Positions 5,562-56,037 of a DNA stretch of 64,000 bases are shown here, one piece after another. A program made the translations under genes and the position numbers. The DNA is from Candidatus Bathyarchaeota archaeon (GTDB taxonomy: Archaea; Thermoproteota; Bathyarchaeia; Bathyarchaeales; Bathyarchaeaceae): contig JAPUUO010000001.1 in NCBI GenBank assembly GCA_026967815.1, positions 4,034-68,033 of the forward strand, read 5' to 3'. The first letter of the stretch is position 1; each line of letters begins with the position of its first letter. The notes beneath the pieces are model-generated. The model was not told the origin of the DNA and did no database searches. It saw only the letters and a program-made list of their open reading frames with translations.

Positions 5562-6362
5562 TTATTCTTTGAATTTCCATATATACTTTCCTCTAAATTT
5601 TTGCAAGCGAATTGAACGAGAGCGATTGGATGGAGCAGAGCCGTAGACTTCGCACACCGCTTTTAATGACGGCCATTCTTTTATGAAATTTCCCTCTTTG
5701 TCATATTGAAGAACTGCCTTAGCATTCGTATGTGTGGGCTTATTGTATTGGGCATTATCTAATTTCAAAAAACTCCAAATATACCCTCCAGCCGAATATG
5801 TGTGACCCAAACATACTCGCCCTATGGCAGTATTCTTTATACCAGTATGACGAGCTGCTTCTGCGGCACTTTCGTATTCAGCAATAAACTCTCCGTTCAT
5901 AGCATATTGGTAAACTTTTTTGGGAGCATTTGGAGTGTTTTTGATTATTTTAGTCGCATTGCTTCTATTGGCGACCTCCGAAATATATGTATTATCTCTG
6001 CAATGTTGCATTGTTAATACATTGTTGGCGTTCTCCTTAGGCGTAACCCATCGTAGATTTGACAATGAATAGTTGGTTACATCGGTGTCAATATGGTCTA
6101 TAAACGGTTTATTGTCGGGGTTGGGAATAAAGGCCAATGCAATTATACGATGTAGCGGAGTGACTCGACTCTTCCTGTTCTTACACAAAGTGACACAAGG
6201 ATAACCACCGGACCCGCTGTGGACTTCTTTTATGCGCCCTCTTACGTGGCGCATAGACTTACCTTGCGGAACATAACGCTCAACTGATTTAACTCGACCG
6301 AGATTGCTCACTTCATACAGCCCCTCATAACCTACTACTGGTTTCCAAATTTCTTGCTCCAT
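5562..6362 (-). CDS. NUMOD4/HNH homing endonuclease
   Basis: From ATG 6362: MEQEIWKPVVGYEGLYEVSNLGRVKS..HRIIALAFIPNPDNKPFIDHID..LRWVTPKENANN, with C-terminal GGYIWSF/GKYIWKF repeats. The gene is visibly AT-rich relative to its flanks. Confidence 0.85.
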   Translation of the reverse strand: MEQEIWKPVVGYEGLYEVSNLGRVKSVERYVPQGKSMRHVRGRIKEVHSGSGGYPCVTLCKNRKSRVTPLHRIIALAFIPNPDNKPFIDHIDTDVTNYSLSNLRWVTPKENANNVLTMQHCRDNTYISEVANRSNATKIIKNTPNAPKKVYQYAMNGEFIAEYESAAEAARHTGIKNTAIGRVCLGHTYSAGGYIWSFLKLDNAQYNKPTHTNAKAVLQYDKEGNFIKEWPSLKAVCEVYGSAPSNRSRSIRLQKFRGKYIWKFKE

Positions 6363-16817: not shown

Positions 16818-17201
16818 ATGGCGCAACTTGTAATCCTCGCCGTCCTTTTGATTTTCGTCGGCTTTATCGGCTTCAGTATTTTTCGTAATCGCAAATCTGA
16901 TGGGACGGCAAACCTTGAAAAAACTTTGTCTTTTGACCCCACGTCTGATATTGAACCGATACAATCTGCATCTACGCCAAGTCCCGATTTTACACATAAG
17001 CCTTGTGCGTTAGCCGTGACCCTACGGATTGTCGGCGTGGTAAACATATTTGCCGCCATTATTTTAGGGCTTGTGTTGGCCGATGATTTTGGTTGGGTTA
17101 TATCCATAGCCGTAATTCTTTCAGGTTGTCTTGGTTGCTTGTTTTGTTATGCGTTTGCCAAGTGCGTAGAGGCAGCTGACAAGTATCTGAATAGCCATTA
17201 A
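16818..17201 (+). CDS. Three-TMD membrane protein (127 aa), cassette gene b
   Basis: ATG 16818 lies 1 nt after the gene a stop. TMDs: LVILAVLLIFVGFIGFSIF, LRIVGVVNIFAAIILGLVLA, VISIAVILSGCLGCLFCYAFA. Confidence 0.55.
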   Translation: MAQLVILAVLLIFVGFIGFSIFRNRKSDGTANLEKTLSFDPTSDIEPIQSASTPSPDFTHKPCALAVTLRIVGVVNIFAAIILGLVLADDFGWVISIAVILSGCLGCLFCYAFAKCVEAADKYLNSH

Positions 17202-21815: not shown

Positions 21816-23120
21816 TTATGCGCTCTTGGCGCGAGTGGTTGTAGATCCCGATGCAATCTCCTCGACCTCGACGTAATAGAGGTCGCTGGGGCAGGTCGGC
21901 ACTGCGAGGAAAGACACCTCTGAAATCCACTCCTGCGTCTTTTGACGACCGTCATAGAAGTATTCAATGATACCCCATCCGTTCATGAAGTTTGCATACA
22001 CATACTCCTTGTCGGGGCGGATAACCTGCACAGGCTGAATAATGCCGATGTTGCCGGTCGGGCGAAGGAGAACCACGCCTTCCTCAAACACGTTGAGCTT
22101 CTTGGTCTTGTACCTCTTTGTCGTACCGTCGAGCTTATCAACGCCTACAACTGCCGTGTGGAGTTTTACTTCGTCAGCACCCACAGCAGATTTGAACCAT
22201 GCTACTGCTGCGGCATCACTCCATTCAAGAAGTTGATTGCGGCCTACATCCTGCGCTTTGGCTGAGGCGGCGGTATTCTTGCTGAGTCCGGCAACGAGGA
22301 TTGCAAGCTCTTTATTGGGGTTGCCAATCATTTCAAGCACCTCGGGGTGTTCGAGCATACGGAAGAAGGTACGGTAGTTCATTTCGACACGTACATTGGT
22401 ATATCCGTTATACTGGTCCATGCGAAGCTCACGAATCTTCTTCTTGAGCGTCATTACAGGGTTGACCGTGGTGACGTATTCAAGAGAGCCGTCCGCCTTG
22501 ACAGTGTACCACTTTTCTTTTGTCACATTGCCTTCCGGCACTCGCGACTCAAACTTCACACCCACAATGCCATCAGGGTTGTTCTCTCGTGTGATATAAA
22601 GACCACGCTTGGAAAGCATCTGGCCGCACTGATAGTTCAGCGACGCAACCGTGGATTCGGGGAATGCACGGAGGTCTTCAGTGGTTGAGCGAATAAGGTA
22701 ATCACGGAGCGACTGACGCGCAACGTTGCCATTTCTGCCGTTGCTTTCAAGCACTGCTGAGAAAACAGAGTCCTGTGCGGCAAGCAGACGATCCTTGTAA
22801 TCATCCTTGCCAAGTTTTACGGCATAGCGTATTGTCGGAATGCTCTCCGACCACTTGGTCAGTTCTGCCTCACGTCCACGGGCGATGGGTTCAGAGTCCT
22901 CGCTGGTGTAGGTCGCCATACCGCGCAGATATTTCTTCGCTTCGGCAAATTTCACCTCGGAATTAAGTTTGATAGGCGCATTAGTGAAACCGTCGGTTTC
23001 AAGGTCAGTGGTTTCATAGCCTTTCAGAGCGGTGTCATAGAATGTCTGAAGGCGTGAGGACGAATTTAAGTCCAGTGTCGAGGCAATATCAAGGCCTGCT
23101 ACAAATTCTTCGATATTCAT
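21816..23120 (-). CDS. Major capsid protein
   Basis: 434 aa. Called from its position after the scaffold and auxiliary head genes. Confidence 0.6.
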   Translation of the reverse strand: MNIEEFVAGLDIASTLDLNSSSRLQTFYDTALKGYETTDLETDGFTNAPIKLNSEVKFAEAKKYLRGMATYTSEDSEPIARGREAELTKWSESIPTIRYAVKLGKDDYKDRLLAAQDSVFSAVLESNGRNGNVARQSLRDYLIRSTTEDLRAFPESTVASLNYQCGQMLSKRGLYITRENNPDGIVGVKFESRVPEGNVTKEKWYTVKADGSLEYVTTVNPVMTLKKKIRELRMDQYNGYTNVRVEMNYRTFFRMLEHPEVLEMIGNPNKELAILVAGLSKNTAASAKAQDVGRNQLLEWSDAAAVAWFKSAVGADEVKLHTAVVGVDKLDGTTKRYKTKKLNVFEEGVVLLRPTGNIGIIQPVQVIRPDKEYVYANFMNGWGIIEYFYDGRQKTQEWISEVSFLAVPTCPSDLYYVEVEEIASGSTTTRAKSA

Positions 23121-23569: not shown

Positions 23570-24247
23570 CTATTCCTCCTTGCCGAGTGCCCTGCGGATT
23601 TCAGCTGCAAAAGCAGCGTCCGCTTCTTTGGGGTCTGTTCCTGCCCCTCCGTCGCTCTGAAATGGCTTGGTCGTGTCTACGCCTTTCTTGCTTACCGCCT
23701 TGTTGAATTTCTCCTTGAACTTGGTGGTAAGCTCATCAGCAGTCCATTTCTTCCCGCTGACTTCGTAAAGCTCCATCACGCGCTCGTAAGCGTCCTCGCA
23801 CTCCGTAGGGTAGCCTTTGGCATAGTCCCACGATGCTTTGAGGTCGTTAAGTGCGGCTACTGCCGATTTCTGCGACTGTGCGGTTTCAAACTGCGTCAGC
23901 CTCTCAGTTATCGGATTCAGCTTCTTGTCAAGAGCCGCCTCGATAAGCGCAGCGATGTCCGGCGTTTCGGGCTTCGGTTCGGGTGGATTGTTGCCGTTGT
24001 CAGGCTCATCAACTTTTGGTGTGTTATTAGGCTTCGGTACAAACCGCTCCAAATCCCGCACTTTGTCATTGATGCTCTGATATGACCTGAGCAGACTAAG
24101 TGTGCTTTCGCTGTTGACGAATCCCTCAATCGCGCTCTCGTCAGTGATGAAAGTTTCTACGGAAGCGGCTACCCTTTCAAATACCTCGTCACTCAGACCC
24201 AGTTTCTTATGACCCTGTTTCAGTGCTTCCTTGATTTTTTGCTTCAT
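23570..24247 (-). CDS. Scaffolding protein
   Basis: 225 aa, helical and charged. First structural gene upstream of the capsid. Confidence 0.5.
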   Translation of the reverse strand: MKQKIKEALKQGHKKLGLSDEVFERVAASVETFITDESAIEGFVNSESTLSLLRSYQSINDKVRDLERFVPKPNNTPKVDEPDNGNNPPEPKPETPDIAALIEAALDKKLNPITERLTQFETAQSQKSAVAALNDLKASWDYAKGYPTECEDAYERVMELYEVSGKKWTADELTTKFKEKFNKAVSKKGVDTTKPFQSDGGAGTDPKEADAAFAAEIRRALGKEE

Positions 24248-24270
24248 TGTGAAGTAGTTAGTTGGTTAAT

Positions 24271-24320
24271 AAAAAAAGAGCCGACAAACGCTGTTACACG
24301 TCTATCGGCTCTGTGGCTCT
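24271..24320 (-). terminator. Strong intrinsic terminator downstream of the tRNA (AGAGCC-doublet element, copy 2)
   Basis: Minus strand reads AGAGCC(24320-24315) AC AGAGCCGA(24312-24305) loop UCGGCUCU(24284-24277) U7. Confidence 0.7.
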
Positions 24321-24331
24321 AATTGTATTTG

Positions 24332-24403
24332 TGGCGCGGGGCGGACTCGAACCGCCGACCTTAGCCTTATGAGGGCTACGAGCTACCGCTGCTCTACCGC
24401 GCT
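24332..24403 (-). tRNA. tRNA with CAT anticodon (Met; Ile2 or initiator-like not excluded)
   Basis: Hand-folded 72-nt cloverleaf: AGCGCGG-TA-GAGC-AGCGGTA-GCTC-G-TAGCC-CTCATAA-GGCTA-AGGTC-GGCGG-TTCGAGT-CCGCC-CCGCGCC-A. Position 1:72 is an A.C mismatch. No CCA is encoded. Confidence 0.8.
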
Positions 24404-24417
24404 ATGTCTAAACCAAC

Positions 24418-24461
24418 AGAGCCGACAAATGCACTCTTGCATCCATCGGCTCTGTGGCTCT
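24418..24461 (-). promoter_or_regulatory. Hairpin paralogous to the tRNA terminator (AGAGCC-doublet element, copy 3)
   Basis: Minus strand reads AGAGCC(24461-24456) AC AGAGCCGA(24453-24446) loop UCGGCUCU(24425-24418) GUUGGUUU. Confidence 0.6.
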
Positions 24462-24478
24462 GTGGTTAAACAATCTTT

Positions 24479-24643
24479 TTACCTGTCAAGGCTGTACTTC
24501 CGCATGTCTATCGGTATCTCTTTACCGCATTTTTTACAAAACAGAAACACAATGCCCCGGCCTACAATATCTTCATATCTGCCGAGTAGTTTCGGCTTGC
24601 GTCCTAATTCCGCACATCTCGGACAATAAATATCACCCCTCAT
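24479..24643 (-). CDS. Zinc-ribbon micro-protein (54 aa)
   Basis: Hand-translated as MRGDIYCPRCAELGRKPKLLGRYEDIVGRGIVFLFCKKCGKEIPIDMRKYSLDR. ATGA overlap with the HNH stop. Confidence 0.55.
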   Translation of the reverse strand: MRGDIYCPRCAELGRKPKLLGRYEDIVGRGIVFLFCKKCGKEIPIDMRKYSLDR

Positions 24644-25281
24644 ATCTGCAATGAACTCACATCTTTAACATACATCCATTTATAACCTTTTGACTGCCTA
24701 AGGATGCCACGAGCAGCTGCGCTAATATTATTAACGCCGGTGACACGTGTTGCTTCTTTAACCGATGGGAACGACGCCAATATGTTGCCGTTCATGTCCA
24801 TTTGGTATACGGCTTTATCGTTATTAGGGAGTTTATGCGTTTTATGCACAGAATGCTTTTTGACATTTTTGCAAACCTTATGCGCATAACGTGCTGCATG
24901 AGCTGCCTTTCGTCTTGCATTTGCGCTACCATAGTTTACATTATATAAATGAGTACACCACTCTAAATTCTCAACAATGTTATTAGACTTGTTTTCATCC
25001 TTGTGGTTAATACATCTCAAACCATCAGGATTGGGAAGAAAAGCGAGCGCGATAAGACGATGAGTTCTGATTGATTTACCTTTGCCACCCCTGCTCAACC
25101 AGCAAAGTTTATATCCGTGTCCGTCGCTCCCTTGCGACAAAACCCGTTCAGGATAGCTTCTTGTATATCGGGTGCCTTTATGAAATTCGACCATATTTCG
25201 GGCAAGACTTTTCACCCTGCCAAGATTGCTTGCTTGGTAAAGTCCTTCATATCCGGGTATGTCACGCCATTCTTCGGTCAT
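24640..25281 (-). CDS. NUMOD4/HNH homing endonuclease adjacent to terL
   Basis: From ATG 25281: MTEEWRDIPGYEGLYQASNLGRVKS..HRLIALAFLPNPDGLRCINHKDENKSNNIVENLEW, with a C-terminal KGYKWMY repeat. Confidence 0.85.
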   Translation of the reverse strand: MTEEWRDIPGYEGLYQASNLGRVKSLARNMVEFHKGTRYTRSYPERVLSQGSDGHGYKLCWLSRGGKGKSIRTHRLIALAFLPNPDGLRCINHKDENKSNNIVENLEWCTHLYNVNYGSANARRKAAHAARYAHKVCKNVKKHSVHKTHKLPNNDKAVYQMDMNGNILASFPSVKEATRVTGVNNISAAARGILRQSKGYKWMYVKDVSSLQI

Positions 25282-25302
25282 ATTTGTAATTCTTTCTGCG
25301 TG

Positions 25303-25371
25303 CAAATATAATGTGTTTTTGTAGATTGCGCAAGAAAAACTATAAAATAACTTTAGATTTTATTATCTTTG
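25303..25371. promoter_or_regulatory. Divergent late-promoter region
   Basis: Minus-strand -7 box TATATTTG (25310-25303) faces the HNH gene. Plus-strand -7 box TATCTTTG (25364-25371) faces terL. The -33 elements are weak. Confidence 0.5.
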
Positions 25372-25381
25372 CACCAAAATC

Positions 25382-25433
25382 AGAGCCGCAGAGCCACTTG
25401 ACCCCATCGCGTCAGGTGGCTTTCGCGGTTTTT
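25382..25433 (+). promoter_or_regulatory. AGAGCC-doublet + hairpin + U-run in the terL leader (copy 4)
   Basis: AGAGCC 25382-25387, GC, AGAGCC 25390-25395. A 10-bp stem GCCACTTGAC 25393-25402 / GTCAGGTGGC 25411-25420 follows, then TTTCGCGGTTTTT. Confidence 0.6.
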
Positions 25434-25440
25434 AGCATCT

Positions 25441-27207
25441 ATGGCGTTCAGATTACTCGACAAATCAATAGCGTTTCCGGCACTCTATCCAAGGGTAGAG
25501 CGCAAACTTGCTACGGTCAAAAGCAAGAGTAAAACGGTTGTGGGAGGATTTGAACTGCGCCATAAGATAGACTACATTCCGCAAGTTGGGCTTCAGGAGA
25601 ATGTATGCGCCTCGGAGTGCAATCTTGTGTTTATGTGCGGACAAGGCACATCGGGTAAGACATTTTCGATGTACCTTAAAGCTCTTTCGGGCGTAGATAA
25701 GCAGGATTTCAAGGCACGTCTTATCTCAGTCCGTGCATTGGACTCCAAAAAAGGCTCGTCGATTTTCACGGACGGCGTTAAGGTATGCGGAGGCTTTGCC
25801 GGATGTCAGGCAAGTTCATCTGATATTCCCTCGTTTGTATGGCCGCAATGGAACTCAAATCTCCAGCTCATACACTCGAACTTCAACTATGCCAACCCCG
25901 ACGAAAAGAAACTGTTTGAGGACTATGCCAAGAAAAATCAGGCTTCGCTCATAATGATTGACGAGGCAACCGAAATGAATCACTTCGGTATGTTCTCGTT
26001 CTGGTTCATGCGTAACCGCGATGATTCGGGCATGATTCCGCAGATGATACTCTCGTTCAACCCTCTGCATGAGCATTGGACTACGGAAATGTTGCGCGAC
26101 GCTGGCTATCTCGGAGCGGACTGGTATCTGCGCAGGGATATGATCGGAAAGATACGCTATTTCTATGTCAAGGGCGACACTCCGGCTGAAATCATTTGGG
26201 GCGACACACGCGAGGAAGTAGTGGAGAAAGCAAGTCCCCGAATATCGCAAGAGGACAGAGAGGCGGGACTGACCGAAGCTGATATGGTAAAATCGTTTAC
26301 CGTGTTCACGGGTACTGCCGCAGACAACCGCGAGCTTGTGAACGCCACGGGCGGTCAGTCAGTCGCAAACCTCCACGCTGTCGGTGGCACACAACGCGCC
26401 ATTGTCGGAGAGGCTTATTTCGGGCCGGTGGAGAACGAGGAAATTAACGTAAGCCGCTCTATGATTCATTCGTTGTGGGAAAATCCGATTGACAATAAGG
26501 ATGCCAACGTATATGCAACTATGGATATTTCCAAAGGCGGGGTAGATTCAGACGGCTGTCCCTGCATCATTTGGAAAGGCTTGCAGATTGTAGCCATTGA
26601 GTTTTTCTGTAAAAACTCCGATTCCGAGGAAACGCATCAGCTGGAGAATTTCATAAACGGCATACTCTTTCGCTACAACATACCGATTGCAAACTTCGCA
26701 TACGATGCAAACGGCATAGGTGGTCTGATTGAGGACTTCCTGAAAAAAGGCGCAAGAGGCATTAGCGGTCAGGGGAGAGTAGAGCAGGAATATGACGAAA
26801 ACGGTAATCAGGTAACGGTCGCCCGATACTTCAACCTCCGCTCACAGCTTCTCGGCAAGACCGAGATAATGCTGAAAAAGGGAGAAATATCAGTTGGCGT
26901 AAGCAAGGATCTTGTAATCCCTTACGGCAAGAAAGGACAACGACGCCGATTCATCGACGTGCTTTTCGATGAAATCAACGTCTTCATCACCACCGACCGC
27001 AACGGCAAAATCTACTACCGCAAGAAAGAGGAATACAAGGACAAATTCAAGTCCTCGCCTGACCTTATGGACGCTATTTCCTACCGGGCAATCTTTGAAC
27101 TCGACACCCGCGAGCGCAAGCAGCCCGCAAAAAGAGTACCCGACAACGCTTATTACAACTTGGTAAACCGTCCGCGCATAGTCAATCCGTGGCGAGGATT
27201 CCGATAA
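25441..27207 (+). CDS. terL: Terminase large subunit
   Basis: 588 aa. Walker A is MCGQGTSGKTF and Walker B is SLIMIDEATE. Followed by the portal gene. Confidence 0.85.
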   Translation: MAFRLLDKSIAFPALYPRVERKLATVKSKSKTVVGGFELRHKIDYIPQVGLQENVCASECNLVFMCGQGTSGKTFSMYLKALSGVDKQDFKARLISVRALDSKKGSSIFTDGVKVCGGFAGCQASSSDIPSFVWPQWNSNLQLIHSNFNYANPDEKKLFEDYAKKNQASLIMIDEATEMNHFGMFSFWFMRNRDDSGMIPQMILSFNPLHEHWTTEMLRDAGYLGADWYLRRDMIGKIRYFYVKGDTPAEIIWGDTREEVVEKASPRISQEDREAGLTEADMVKSFTVFTGTAADNRELVNATGGQSVANLHAVGGTQRAIVGEAYFGPVENEEINVSRSMIHSLWENPIDNKDANVYATMDISKGGVDSDGCPCIIWKGLQIVAIEFFCKNSDSEETHQLENFINGILFRYNIPIANFAYDANGIGGLIEDFLKKGARGISGQGRVEQEYDENGNQVTVARYFNLRSQLLGKTEIMLKKGEISVGVSKDLVIPYGKKGQRRRFIDVLFDEINVFITTDRNGKIYYRKKEEYKDKFKSSPDLMDAISYRAIFELDTRERKQPAKRVPDNAYYNLVNRPRIVNPWRGFR

Positions 27208-27222
27208 CAACAGATACGAGAT

Positions 27223-28896
27223 ATGAGAATTTCAGAGAGATTACAAAAACAGTTTTGGCGACGCAGGATAAATCCCGATGCCGTCGATAAGCATACGCCC
27301 GTTGGTGCGCAGTATTATCGAGAACCCGCCATGTCGTATGACGATGGCTGTTATATGCTGCTTACGCAAGAGGATTTCTGCCGCGAAAATGACCCATTGG
27401 CGCACGACATAAATAGCCGGTATATGAGTATGCGCCCTATTTATGAGGTGCGCAAAAAGCTGGATGCGGAGGGCAATGCCGTTCTTGACGAGGAGGGAAA
27501 GCCGATAAACGAATGGCATATTGTCGATTTTGAACCCGTGGAAACGGTGCGCTTCGGCTTGCAGAAGCGCATCAATACCTCAAAAGCGGCGTTTATGGCA
27601 GGTAACGGCTTTTGGGTGTGCCATGAGGACAAAGACCACGACCTCGGCGAAAAACTCAACTCATGGAAAGACAGCGCGGGGCTTGATACGGCTTGGCAGG
27701 AGTTGGTGAAGTCCTGCTACCTTACGGGCGATGGCGCGATTTATCAGTACGTCCATAACGGACAGTTACAATATGAGGTTTTCAGCTATCTCAAAGGAGA
27801 CATTCTGTTTCCAGACTATGACGAGAACCGCAACCCCGTACTTGCCCGTCTTTACACATTGCGCGGCAGACGCGCCGTGGATATTTTCACCACGGAACGT
27901 GTACAGACATGGATTGAGGGCGATAAGGTAAGCGAAAAGGATGCGTCGTGGTTCATGCGCTTTTCGGGGTGGTTTGCAAAAGGTCTTAAATGGGATTCAG
28001 CAAAAACGAGCGAAGACGGCTGGCGTTGTCTCTCCGACAACCCCACACAAACACCCGTAGGTATCAATCCATGTACCTATTTCAAAGTGCCGGACATTCC
28101 CTCAGGCATAGCCAATCAGGAAATCGGCACTCTTGAAAAAGCGTGTTCGTTTGTAGCAGACGGAGTACGTGCCAACTCACAGGCTCCGCTATTTGTCAAG
28201 GCAACCGACATCGACAATCTGCCGCGCACCGATTCGACGGGTAAGATTATCGGTGTGAAAGGCGCGGTAGAAGAGCTTAAAGCCGCAGATGCAAAGTTCT
28301 TGACACCTCCAAACCTCTCTGACATCGCAACCATAGACATAGCCAACAAACAGAGGTCTATCCGCGAGTCCACGATGAGCGTAGATATTACACCCGAAAT
28401 ATTCCGTGCGGCAGACCCTTCAAGCGCGGCAATCAAGTTATTGTTCACCGATACAATTATTTGGTGCAAGAACGAGTTTGTGCATCTTTATCCCTCGCTC
28501 GTCAGCCTCATAGATGTATTTAAGGCTCTTGTGGCAAAGATTGAGGGTAACGGTAAGATTGCGACCATGCGGACTTCGTGCGGTTGTGATTTTTGGATTC
28601 CGCAGAACGATAGCGAGGTGTTGAAGCGCGAACTTGACATGGTGGCATATCGTATCAAGTCGCGCAAATCCGCAATGTCTGACGCAGGGAACAGCCATGT
28701 AGAGGACTACGAGCAGATTATAAAAGAATGGAAAGAGGAACTTGACATCAAGGCCCGAATCCCGGCTGTCGCGAAAGCGGAGGTGCAAGAGAAATACGGC
28801 GAACCGCAGGAAACAATCGAAGTCGAAGAGGAAGATAATGACAACAAACCCAAAATTGACAACTCCGCAAAGGGCAAGTCAATAACGGAAGGCTAA
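27223..28896 (+). CDS. Portal protein
   Basis: 557 aa, immediately after terL. The acidic C-terminus is typical of portals. Confidence 0.7.
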   Translation: MRISERLQKQFWRRRINPDAVDKHTPVGAQYYREPAMSYDDGCYMLLTQEDFCRENDPLAHDINSRYMSMRPIYEVRKKLDAEGNAVLDEEGKPINEWHIVDFEPVETVRFGLQKRINTSKAAFMAGNGFWVCHEDKDHDLGEKLNSWKDSAGLDTAWQELVKSCYLTGDGAIYQYVHNGQLQYEVFSYLKGDILFPDYDENRNPVLARLYTLRGRRAVDIFTTERVQTWIEGDKVSEKDASWFMRFSGWFAKGLKWDSAKTSEDGWRCLSDNPTQTPVGINPCTYFKVPDIPSGIANQEIGTLEKACSFVADGVRANSQAPLFVKATDIDNLPRTDSTGKIIGVKGAVEELKAADAKFLTPPNLSDIATIDIANKQRSIRESTMSVDITPEIFRAADPSSAAIKLLFTDTIIWCKNEFVHLYPSLVSLIDVFKALVAKIEGNGKIATMRTSCGCDFWIPQNDSEVLKRELDMVAYRIKSRKSAMSDAGNSHVEDYEQIIKEWKEELDIKARIPAVAKAEVQEKYGEPQETIEVEEEDNDNKPKIDNSAKGKSITEG

Positions 28897-29684
28897 TCGG
28901 TTATCTCAACTTTATATCTTTGTAAGGCAAGATACACCTCTTTGGTTATCTTGCCTTGCTTGTAGTAGCCTTCGGCAATTTCTTTTAGGTACGCCTCCTT
29001 GGCGGCTTTATATACAGCAAAGGCTTTTTCGGGAGTGTTAAAATAGCCTAAGTGAACTTTATGAGTGGGTGTGTTGATTTGCGCAATATAAGAATTTTCG
29101 ACCCTTGAAACTCCTATTGGATAGTTGCCTCTACTTCTTTTGCGTAGCAATATTAGGGTATTAAGTCTATTGGGCACGAAACAACATGTTTTGGGCGAAT
29201 AAATCTTATTTCCCTTTACGAGTATGTCTTTGTCTAACTGATACCCCTCTTGATAACCGTTTTCGGGATTGTCAAACCACTTTTTGAAGTTTGAAAATGT
29301 GTGCCATTCCTCGCACACCGAACATTCTTTATAGGTAGGGTATTTATCTTGGTATTTCTTTTCGTAGCATCGTCTTAACATTGTAAACCAATATCGGTAT
29401 GCGGTGGTTTGTCTGACATTAGGCATGTCATTTATCCCTACTCCGAGTACCAACTTGGATTTGCGCAAAGAACGCATCCTTTCTCTTCCACACATCGGGC
29501 ATCCTCTTTTGTGCCCAATGTGGTCTGTAGGGCGCATGGAAAATTCGCCATGAGAAGGGCATATTATTGCTACATGCGTGAGTTTGTCTGTATAATTTAC
29601 TTTGGAATAATCATAACGGCATCCGTGTATCTTTTGCGCCCGTAGTATAAATTCTGATGTGGTAAGATTGTTTCCGTTTGGCAT
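28893..29684 (-). CDS. Homing-endonuclease-like protein with AP2-type DNA-binding domain
   Basis: The N-terminus FILRAQKIHGCRYDYSKVNY..CPSHGEFSMRPTDHIGHKRGCPMCG is a phage endonuclease-associated Zn motif. The C-terminus IGVSRVENSYIAQINTPTHKVHLGYFNTPEKAFAVYKAAKEAY is AP2-like. Opposite strand and AT-rich. Confidence 0.6.
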   Translation of the reverse strand: MPNGNNLTTSEFILRAQKIHGCRYDYSKVNYTDKLTHVAIICPSHGEFSMRPTDHIGHKRGCPMCGRERMRSLRKSKLVLGVGINDMPNVRQTTAYRYWFTMLRRCYEKKYQDKYPTYKECSVCEEWHTFSNFKKWFDNPENGYQEGYQLDKDILVKGNKIYSPKTCCFVPNRLNTLILLRKRSRGNYPIGVSRVENSYIAQINTPTHKVHLGYFNTPEKAFAVYKAAKEAYLKEIAEGYYKQGKITKEVYLALQRYKVEITD

Positions 29685-29797: not shown

Positions 29798-29860
29798 TAA
29801 ATTTGCAATCATAAAAGAGCCATGAGCCTGCAACGCCCAAAGCGTTGTGGGCTTTATTGT
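29798..29860 (+). promoter_or_regulatory. -7 box + imperfect AGAGCC doublet + hairpin/U-run (copy 5)
   Basis: TAAATTTG 29798-29805; AGAGCC 29816-29821, AT, GAGCC 29824-29828; stem CAACGC 29831-29836 / GCGTTG 29842-29847, then TGGGCTTTATTGTT. Confidence 0.45.
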
Positions 29861-29993
29861 TATAACTCAGAACAAAGAACTTATATGGAAGAACATAAGG
29901 ACAACCCCGACAAAGCCGAGAAGTCTCCAAAAATAGACAACAACGCCGACCGGAAGGACATAGCAGACAACGACAACAAATAACGCATCAAAC

Positions 29994-31033: not shown

Positions 31034-31069
31034 CCTTTTGAGCCGAGAGCCTACGCCTTATGATACGAT

Positions 31070-55975: not shown

Positions 55976-55978
55976 ATC

Positions 55979-56037
55979 GGCTCTTTTGGCTCTTGGTTCA
56001 TACCGCAAAGTTAAAGCGACATTGCGGATTATCCAAA
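55979..56037 (-). promoter_or_regulatory. Canonical early-left promoter followed by AGAGCC doublet (copy 6)
   Basis: Minus strand reads TTTG (56037-56034) - N20 - TAACTTTG (56013-56006) - 12 nt - AGAGCC AAA AGAGCC (55993-55979) GAT ATG. Confidence 0.6.

Follow-up and report, generated by a model that had tools for sequence, protein, structure and literature searches.

Several described systems control gene expression through an RNA-binding protein and a hairpin in the leader RNA. In the attenuation systems of LicT and SacY with their ribonucleic antiterminator (RAT) sites, and in those of HutP, PyrR and TRAP, the short repeated RNA motifs bound by the protein overlap the 5' arm of a leader terminator, and binding decides whether the terminator forms. 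Hosts belonging to the Bacteroidota use -33/-7 promoters and no Shine-Dalgarno (SD) sites, and to our knowledge the control of late genes is essentially uncharted in their phages. Here we describe a family of hairpin modules and an associated gene for a small zinc (Zn)-ribbon protein in a stretch of 64,000 nucleotides (nt) from contig JAPUUO010000001.1 (assembly GCA_026967815.1, deposited as Candidatus Bathyarchaeota archaeon), referred to below as the window, which belongs to a gut phage. The closest likeness is to the Com protein of phage Mu, for which SELEX and footprinting gave the RNA motif 5'-CC(N)2-3GAG-3', with the bipartite form GAGNNCC(N)2-3GAGNNCC (PMC6483171). The native site in mom, GAAUGCCUGCGAGCAUCCC, adjoins a translation inhibition structure that is opened by the binding of Com (PMC6483171). 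A second likeness is to the promoter early stem-loop (PeSL) cassettes of T4-like phages, in which a composite repeat surrounds variable cargo (PMC2839356, PMC4122927).

Based on the sequence comparisons presented below, we suggest that the Com-like Zn-ribbon protein and the leader terminator module on balance probably form a switch for the structural operons.

A repeated hairpin module at the structural operons

The module consists of a tandem repeat, GAGCC-N2-3-GAGCC, of which the second GAGCC forms the 5' base of a hairpin that is followed by a U-run. The tandem was found 8 times in the window, as compared to an expected number of 0.63. Full modules were located on both sides of a tRNA gene upstream of the head genes, and also behind three canonical -7 boxes, in front of the TerL/portal, tape-measure and tail-fibre operons; all four full modules that head an operon sit at structural operons. 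Clean ordinary terminators elsewhere in the genome had unrelated stems and no GAGCC. Because of this, and because the tandem is enriched, we consider the module to be sequence-specific and not a generic terminator. An earlier note on this DNA had described the hairpin before the head genes but overlooked its membership in a multicopy, sequence-specific family tied to the Zn-ribbon gene. The features of this locus are listed here as they follow each other on the minus strand, where UP and DN denote the two modules that bracket the tRNA:

25310-25303, minus strand: -7 box TATATTTG, the sole canonical Bacteroidota promoter 5' of the HNH, Zn-ribbon, tRNA and head genes
25281-24640, minus strand: HNH homing-endonuclease gene (Pfam NUMOD4/HNH_3; phrog_59)
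24643-24479, minus strand: gene for a Zn-ribbon protein of 54 amino acids (CxxC...CxxC), the candidate trans-acting partner of the modules
24460-24410, minus strand: UP module, with the tandem GAGCC at 24460-24448 and the inner stem at 24453-24418
24460-24455 with 24415-24410, minus strand: outer helix of the UP module, a module with no clean U-run
24403-24331, minus strand: tRNA-Met (CAT), identified by ARAGORN and by Rfam (RF00005, 64 bits)
24320-24271, minus strand: DN module, with the tandem GAGCC at 24319-24307, the stem at 24312-24277 and a T-run at 24277-24271
24247-23570, minus strand: scaffold-like gene (phrog_5824), the first gene 3' of the DN module
21816-23120, minus strand: capsid gene (434 amino acids), identified by a tblastn match to the LoVEphage major head protein and preceded by an open reading frame (ORF) of 131 amino acids

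Every element of the gene order in the earlier note was present at the coordinates it gave, and the tRNA is indeed bracketed by paralogous hairpins, with the UP and DN modules forming a direct repeat of 47 nt with 79% identity. The DN copy has the shape of an intrinsic terminator, with a GC-rich stem of 15 base pairs (bp) and a T-run, the first T of which pairs with A24312. It is located 23 to 29 nt ahead of the scaffold ATG (24247), and was the best-scoring terminator-like site between 20 and 30 kb in the window. The fold-energy check named in the note yielded -25.1 kcal/mol (z -6.6) for the DN module and -34.5 kcal/mol (z -8.6) for the UP module, and none of 200 shuffled sequences folded as well as either hairpin, in agreement with its description of a strong terminator-shaped hairpin directly before the scaffold and capsid genes. 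The details of the modules fared less well. The arms are shared, as the note had said, but the stems are 15 to 16 bp long rather than 8 bp; the "CAAA loop start", written for the plus strand, is UUUG on the RNA and lengthens the stem via G.U wobbles; and what the note calls the "AGAGCC-AC extension" is the tandem repeat's distal GAGCC.

A search for TAnnTTTG between the U-run and the scaffold ATG gave no match. The only exact occurrence on the minus strand from 25320 to 24240 was the box at 25310-25303, which bears out the missing promoter before the scaffold gene, with no exact match from 25303 to the ATG. Since there is no canonical promoter in between, transcription from the 25.3-kb promoter must cross the DN hairpin to reach the head genes. 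The note had extended this read-through to all head and tail genes, which does not hold, as -7 boxes and modules of their own are present at both the tape-measure/tail operon and the tail-fibre operon. Boxes with one mismatch occurred in the same stretch at the chance rate, about 5 per kb. A hidden promoter was considered and rejected: the only near-consensus box, TGCATTTG (24433-24426, minus strand), is located inside the 3' arm of the UP module, 23 nt 5' of the tRNA, and belongs to this chance-rate class. It was also noted that a box of this type is kept in all "type A" UP modules (loci L001, L005, L013 and L016). It could possibly serve as a promoter for the tRNA, but this is unsupported because one-mismatch boxes occur at the chance rate. 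A scan of positions 23800-25600 against Rfam at E <= 10 returned the tRNA and no other covariance model.

The remaining copies of the module and of the tandem in the window are the following:

25364-25371, plus strand: -7 box TATCTTTG of the TerL leader, 11 nt from the tandem GAGCC at 25383-25395
25382-25432, plus strand: bipartite hairpin of the TerL leader, with U5 at 25429-25433 and the TerL ATG at 25441
29798-29866, plus strand: tail-fibre leader, with the -7 box TAAATTTG, a gap of 11 nt, the tandem at 29817-29828 and the hairpin at 29824-29854
17274-17196, minus strand: tail (tape-measure) leader, with the -7 box TATCTTTG at 17274-17267, a gap of 20 nt and the tandem at 17246-17234
56013-55976, minus strand: tandem-only site, with the -7 box TAACTTTG, a gap of 13 nt and GAGCCAAAAGAGCC, and no hairpin
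31040-31051, plus strand: tandem-only site GAGCCGAGAGCC, 18 nt 5' of an ORF for a tail-fibre-like protein of 2884 amino acids, and conserved in L007

The TerL leader folded with -32.5 kcal/mol (z -7.7) and the hairpin of the tape-measure leader (17250-17196) with -35.5 kcal/mol (z -6.1); homologues of the latter site were present in two related loci (L013, position 11923; L014, position 11865). In the tail-fibre leader the hairpin is followed by a U-rich run, and the downstream genes include the one for the 2884-amino-acid tail-fibre-like protein. The tandem-only site at 55976-56013 stops 3 nt short of the ATG (55975) of a gene for a DNA methyltransferase, and a third, degenerate repeat (GAACC) stands ahead of its tandem. 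Both tandem-only sites may be translational targets of the factor proposed for the modules. Very short ORFs of 25 and 32 amino acids were observed at 17196-17198 (minus strand) and 29886-29983 (plus strand), where they begin just after, or in the 3' strand of, the modules of the tail and fibre operons. A second HNH endonuclease gene (28893-29684, minus strand; phrog_953, E = 2e-79) meets the end of the portal gene in convergent orientation.

Conservation of the module and its association with the Zn-ribbon gene

A total of 23 related loci were retrieved via the scaffold protein. No relative of the window's clade was identified among the deposited phage genomes searched with megablast and tblastn, and the sole link to these genomes was the capsid protein, which showed 22% identity to that of the Bacteroides LoVEphage. 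Within the scaffold-defined clade, the Zn-ribbon gene and the modules co-varied perfectly. Modules, including the one in the TerL leader, were present in each of the 18 Zn-positive loci and in the window, and the 5 Zn-negative loci contained no tandem at all, which gives 19 sequences with both and 5 with neither. In the Zn-negative loci that included the start of TerL, the -7 box led directly to a short AT-rich leader. The TerL protein of one Zn-negative locus (L008) was 68% identical to that of the window, which is above most of the Zn-positive relatives, and the split can therefore not be explained by one deep divergence.

The association was also seen in the wider set of modules. The end of a Zn-ribbon ORF was located within about 35 nt of the module in 17 of 47 distinct true modules, as compared to 3 of 58 and 0 of 119 in the controls. 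In the reciprocal test, which was seeded by a subgroup of 3 Zn-ribbon sequences and covered homologues of the divergent subgroup only, a tandem hairpin was present at the 3' end of the Zn-ribbon gene in 69 of 74 loci, corresponding to a 48-fold enrichment. Many of these loci had the motif within the ORF, with GAG CCN nnG AGC CGN encoding E-P-x-S-R and the stop codon in the hairpin, and many had a tRNA (Met, Ser or Arg) downstream of the module, with a scaffold-like gene after that. In many relatives among loci L407 to L454 (around positions 1600-1700), the tandem and the 5' arm were inside the Zn-ribbon ORF, the protein ended with ...E-P-x-S-(R)*, and the stop codon was in the loop or arm; ribosomes translating the ORF would then run into the terminator hairpin. 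In a group that uses SD sites (L455 to L480), the tandem hairpin enclosed AAGGAG together with the following gene's ATG and had no U-run, and a tandem-only site was located on the start codon of another gene.

The -7 box in the relatives was located 4 to 6 or 19 nt before the ATG of the Zn-ribbon gene. In L003, L004, L006, L010, L014 and L018 (around positions 5700-5760), the ATG or GTG was located 4 to 6 nt past TAnnTTTG, and the mRNA of the putative regulator would therefore be leaderless or near-leaderless. In the window, the HNH gene is inserted between the -7 box of the head operon and the Zn-ribbon gene, where it reuses the original leader (CACGCAGAAgAA...); L016 was the only relative with an HNH gene at this place (41% identity).

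The DN module, its U-run and a spacer of approximately 25 nt before the ATG were kept in about 17 of the 23 loci, and given this conservation, read-through of the hairpin appears to be a designed feature. Five loci that lack the tRNA (L003, L006 and L018 to L020) contained a DN-type module directly after the Zn-ribbon ORF. In an alignment of 14 DN copies, 99% of the cells were paired and 5 pairs showed compensatory changes; none of 500 shuffled alignments matched these covariation values, and slid registers did not come close. The stem base, AGAGCCGAU/GUCGGCUCU, was invariant and the inner stem drifted, and in the TerL-type leaders the distal repeat and the spacer make an outer helix that covaries. 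The sense strand was the more stable one in 73 of 83 distinct hairpins (p = 2e-13), and the number of G.U pairs per hairpin was 1.87 in the sense fold versus 0.11 in the antisense fold. The stem is under structural selection on the sense strand and, given the bias in stability and G.U pairs, the selected object is the folded sense single strand and not a palindrome in duplex DNA.

The position of the module was likewise constrained. In the window and the loci, the distance from the end of the -7 box, where present, to the tandem was 10 to 11 nt in 17 of 19 cases; an ORF typically started 7 to 35 nt past the hairpin. The distance from arm to arm was 10 to 30 nt, and many copies were within 5 to 50 nt of the end of an upstream ORF. 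The stem base and the upstream repeat were shared by phages with 35% to 70% protein identity, across host phyla. A complete scan of IMG/VR for TATCTTTG followed by 10 to 11 nt and the tandem returned 26 distinct sequences, 23 of which had both the hairpin and a U-rich run, in most cases ahead of an ORF the size of TerL. Chance matches dominated when the viral scan was anchored on TTTG alone (3 usable sequences). In the IMG/VR scan with the module pattern, true modules were found in contigs of 34% to 59% GC and had unrelated inner stems; in a contig scan of 596 Gb with GAGCCN{1,5}GAGCCGAN{10,30}TCGGCT, the matches listed were mostly chance matches in high-GC genomes. It was also noted that 2 different modules are placed in series between a -7 box and an ORF of 782 to 1747 amino acids in L037 (4777 and 4848), L106 (6698 and 6768) and L133 (327 and 401).

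The tRNAs between the modules differed among the close relatives, which contained Met, Ala and Ser, Tyr and Met, Met and Ile, Asn or none, and the flanking modules were kept whatever the tRNA content. We suggest that the tRNA occupies a landing pad between two copies of the module, the upstream of which would have lost its U-run, and that the duplication is most simply read as the trace left when a cassette was captured through recombination inside the module. In L004, a third tRNA-like sequence (GGAGATACGCC...TTCGATTCC...TCTCCACC, positions 5835-5925) was observed between tRNA-Ser and the DN module; it was not called by ARAGORN.

With regard to the protein, divergent members of the Zn-ribbon family passed PF14205 (Cys_rich_KTR) with values of 1e-13 to 1e-16, and 4 relatives linked by jackhmmer obtained 48 to 58 bits. 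PF10122 gave 0.018 in one member, and several members weakly matched phrog_6417, "translational regulator" (1.3e-5 to 5.4e-3). Comparison of the family profile with Mu Com by hhalign yielded a probability of 74% with both zinc knuckles aligned, which serves as a lead only. No Q-like domain or signature was found in the protein with the Pfam scans. The literature searched contained no function for PF14205, and nothing relevant on LoVEphage hairpins or on antitermination in Bacteroides phages. The cultured Flavonifractor phage Cormatin (ON453905) encodes a homologue annotated as "translational regulator" between the replication genes and HNH-TerS-TerL; the homologue is followed by a repeated GCGCCUGAGCCA, the second copy of which provides the 5' base of a hairpin that has a U-run. 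A PF14205-type homologue (ORF60) was also located directly downstream of tet(O) in Streptococcus phage phi-m46.1 (L483; FM864213, 53531-53704), and the PF14205-type family is present in many phage-like elements of Streptococcus suis, S. pyogenes and S. pneumoniae.

A proposed leader switch and the alternatives to it

According to the proposed switch, the leader RNA would by default fold as an intrinsic terminator or attenuator just 5' of the first gene of each structural operon, so that the TerL/portal, scaffold/capsid, tape-measure/tail and tail-fibre operons are gated. The Zn-ribbon protein would be the first product of the head-operon promoter and, being Com-like, would recognise GCC-N2-3-GAGC, which spans both repeats. 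If bound to the nascent transcript while the 3' arm is still to be synthesised, it would withhold the 5' base of the stem; the terminator would then be unable to form and RNA polymerase would read the late genes, giving a delay switch for the virion genes. At the tandem-only sites next to start codons (55.99 kb and 31.04 kb), binding of this kind would affect translation. The anatomy of the module, the covariation in its stem, its place on the sense strand, its positions relative to promoters and genes, its co-variation with the Zn-ribbon gene and the match to the Com motif are observed; that it terminates transcription, that the protein binds it and which way control runs are inferred. A switch made of RNA only, by alternative pairing of the two repeats, was rejected because either repeat still yields a terminator with the 3' arm.

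A number of observations speak against this proposal. The fixed distance of 10 to 11 nt to the -7 box is what one would sooner expect of a site recognised at the DNA level or on the non-template strand; the spacing values are also in part not independent of each other, since homologous TerL leaders make up many of the cases. The UP copy has no U-run and the 17.2-kb copy a poor one. The window protein itself scored 16.9 bits against PF14205, as compared to a cut-off of 25.5 bits (E = 0.0057), and had no significant match to PF10122 or any PHROG; the links within the protein family go via jackhmmer intermediates from a small local set, and structure prediction and fold search of the protein were uninformative. 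The co-variation of gene and module could result if a repeat family spreading within genomes is inherited together with the gene, and the censuses are partial because the loci are only 3 to 12 kb long. Finally, the Com motif specifies 5 bases only, the match was noticed after the fact, and in Mu the motif is in the hairpin loop, unlike here, where it is in the single-stranded spacer and the stem base.

A dedicated regulatory system best accounts for the terminator-shaped hairpin that has to be crossed on the way to the head genes. Each of the rival explanations covers part of the data and none covers the full set. One is that the module is a plain, constitutive intrinsic terminator or attenuator that ends the Zn-ribbon/tRNA transcript, leaks to the head genes and is conserved by ancestry. 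The canonical GC-rich stem of 15 bp with its U-run, a location just after a gene and a tRNA, and the many copies 5 to 50 nt from the end of an upstream ORF fit this. However, the stem base and the upstream repeat are kept among phages of 35% to 70% identity and across host phyla while the inner stem drifts, the ordinary terminators of this genome share nothing with the module, copies stand between promoters and essential genes such as TerL, and the co-variation is perfect with a gene that does not adjoin the TerL copy. We consider this explanation unlikely.

Alternatively, the module might be a 5' stabiliser or an RNase-processing element of the late mRNAs: placed at their very 5' ends by initiation, or by excision of the tRNA through RNase P/Z, it would shield them from decay that depends on the 5' end, with the Zn-ribbon protein being unrelated or an RNA chaperone. 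Such a role would agree with the structure being on the sense strand and with the location of the tandem 10 to 11 nt past the -7 box, a few nt from the expected transcription start; the DN module would likewise be 12 nt from the new 5' end once the tRNA 3' end is processed. But a stabiliser needs neither a specific tandem nor a U-run after the helix, which nearly all promoter-proximal copies have, and it accounts neither for the tandem-only sites at start codons without a hairpin nor for the forms that sequester a ribosome-binding site. This, too, seems improbable to us.

A third alternative places the function in the DNA, either as an operator similar to the Q binding element (QBE), as a site of non-template recognition of the RfaH/ops kind, or as a recombination linker like the PeSLs. 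Apart from the fixed distance of 10 to 11 nt from the -7 box, the repeats recur with a period of about 8, in keeping with the pair of 8-bp subsites in the QBE of Q21, the Q cassette has the same order of regulator gene, promoter, repeat, terminator and late genes, and the tRNA content varies between close relatives with the flanking modules kept, as in PeSL cassettes. Yet the covariation of the inner stem and the G.U bias favour a folded single strand, the arms are separated by anything from 10 to 30 nt, copies occur after the Zn-ribbon gene and after tRNAs without an adjacent promoter, the order in the PeSLs is the opposite one (terminator, then promoter), and the protein has no Q-like signature, all of which leaves a DNA-level element with a low probability, though recognition of the non-template strand may be compatible with these points.

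The remaining idea, that the module serves tRNA maturation or insulation, which the earlier note had offered as an alternative, or that the hairpin is melted by ribosomes as they complete the Zn-ribbon ORF, would account for the triad of Zn-ribbon gene, module and tRNA (Met, Ser or Arg) that recurs in distant phages and for the stop codon within the hairpin in many relatives, but is very improbable as the primary function, since the module is kept at the same spot in tRNA-less relatives and in tRNA-free leaders such as that of TerL, the stop codon in the window is 26 nt 5' of the UP proximal arm, and no ORF precedes the DN, TerL and tail copies.

If the proposed switch of Zn-ribbon protein and leader terminator is correct, it would suggest a function for PF14205 (Cys_rich_KTR) and would define a compact cis element, a candidate trans factor and a regulon that consists of the packaging, head, tail and fibre operons. 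It would tie the element to Mu Com, the one zinc-finger RNA switch with a measured RNA motif, and account for the strong "terminators" that many genomes of uncultured gut phages have before essential virion genes, with bearing on operon prediction and on the engineering of gut phages. With a protein of 54 amino acids and RNAs of 50 nt, the proposal is open to direct test. More tentatively, and with less confidence than for the window alone, PF14205/Com-like proteins could form a widespread, unrecognised class of switches for late genes in gut phages that infect Bacteroidota and Firmicutes, in which one small protein reads GAGCC repeats in RNA and the modules also act as recombination linkers capturing tRNA cassettes. 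In this broad version, the content of the hairpin would decide the outcome: relief of the leader terminators of all virion operons, unmasking of ribosome-binding sites or occlusion of the start codons of early genes.

Comparison with known regulatory systems

The element shares with ordinary Rho-independent terminators a GC-rich stem and then a U-run, but differs from them in that the stem base and the upstream half-repeat are conserved and in being located at the heads rather than the ends of operons. Like the PeSLs, it is a conserved repeat that flanks variable cargo, here tRNAs, and plausibly mediates shuffling. In the PeSLs, however, the stem-loop precedes an early promoter, whereas here the promoter precedes the hairpin, and the PeSLs are generic sigma-70 signals without a dedicated protein, whereas the module has a specific tandem.

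Among the regulators of transcription termination, the lambdoid Q/pR'-tR' system has the same arrangement of regulator, promoter, direct repeat near the start, terminator and late genes, and there the late virion genes are off by default through a promoter-proximal terminator. Q differs by binding duplex DNA at the QBE and by requiring a sigma-dependent pause at the promoter; here, copies of the module are found far from promoters, the folded sense strand is conserved, and the protein is a Zn ribbon of 54 amino acids without similarity to Q. Unlike in the N/nut system of phage lambda, there is no conserved boxB loop of the kind that an arginine-rich peptide recognises: the loop and the inner stem vary, and the stem base and the tandem are conserved. 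Compared to LicT/SacY, HutP, PyrR and TRAP, the protein fold is unrelated and phage-encoded, and no alternative antiterminator helix is evident.

The likeness to Com and mom extends to the motif, the layout and, weakly, the protein profile. The GAGCC-N2-3-GAGCC tandem contains CC(N)2-3GAG. The corresponding sequences are GCCUGCGAGC in mom and GCCACAGAGC here, the latter in both the UP and DN modules, with GCCGCAGAGC in the TerL module. The spacer was 2 to 3 nt long in 135 of 181 real modules, and tandem matches without a hairpin differed in this respect. As in Mu, a small CxxC...CxxC zinc protein is encoded just 5' of its target on the same transcript, and the RNA site is next to or overlaps an inhibitory hairpin; in the L455 to L480 relatives, the start codon and the SD site are inside the hairpin, as in mom. 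In contrast to Com, the window protein fails the Pfam Com family (PF10122) and its relatives belong to PF14205. The putative targets also differ, with several that head all structural operons, and thus a regulon, in place of one accessory gene. Furthermore, the hairpins in the window have a U-run, end 8 to 29 nt before the start codons and mask none of them, and the likely output is therefore transcription termination rather than start-codon masking. The best reading of the sequence data is that the element combines a Com/mom-like recognition with an antitermination-like output that would act on a regulon.

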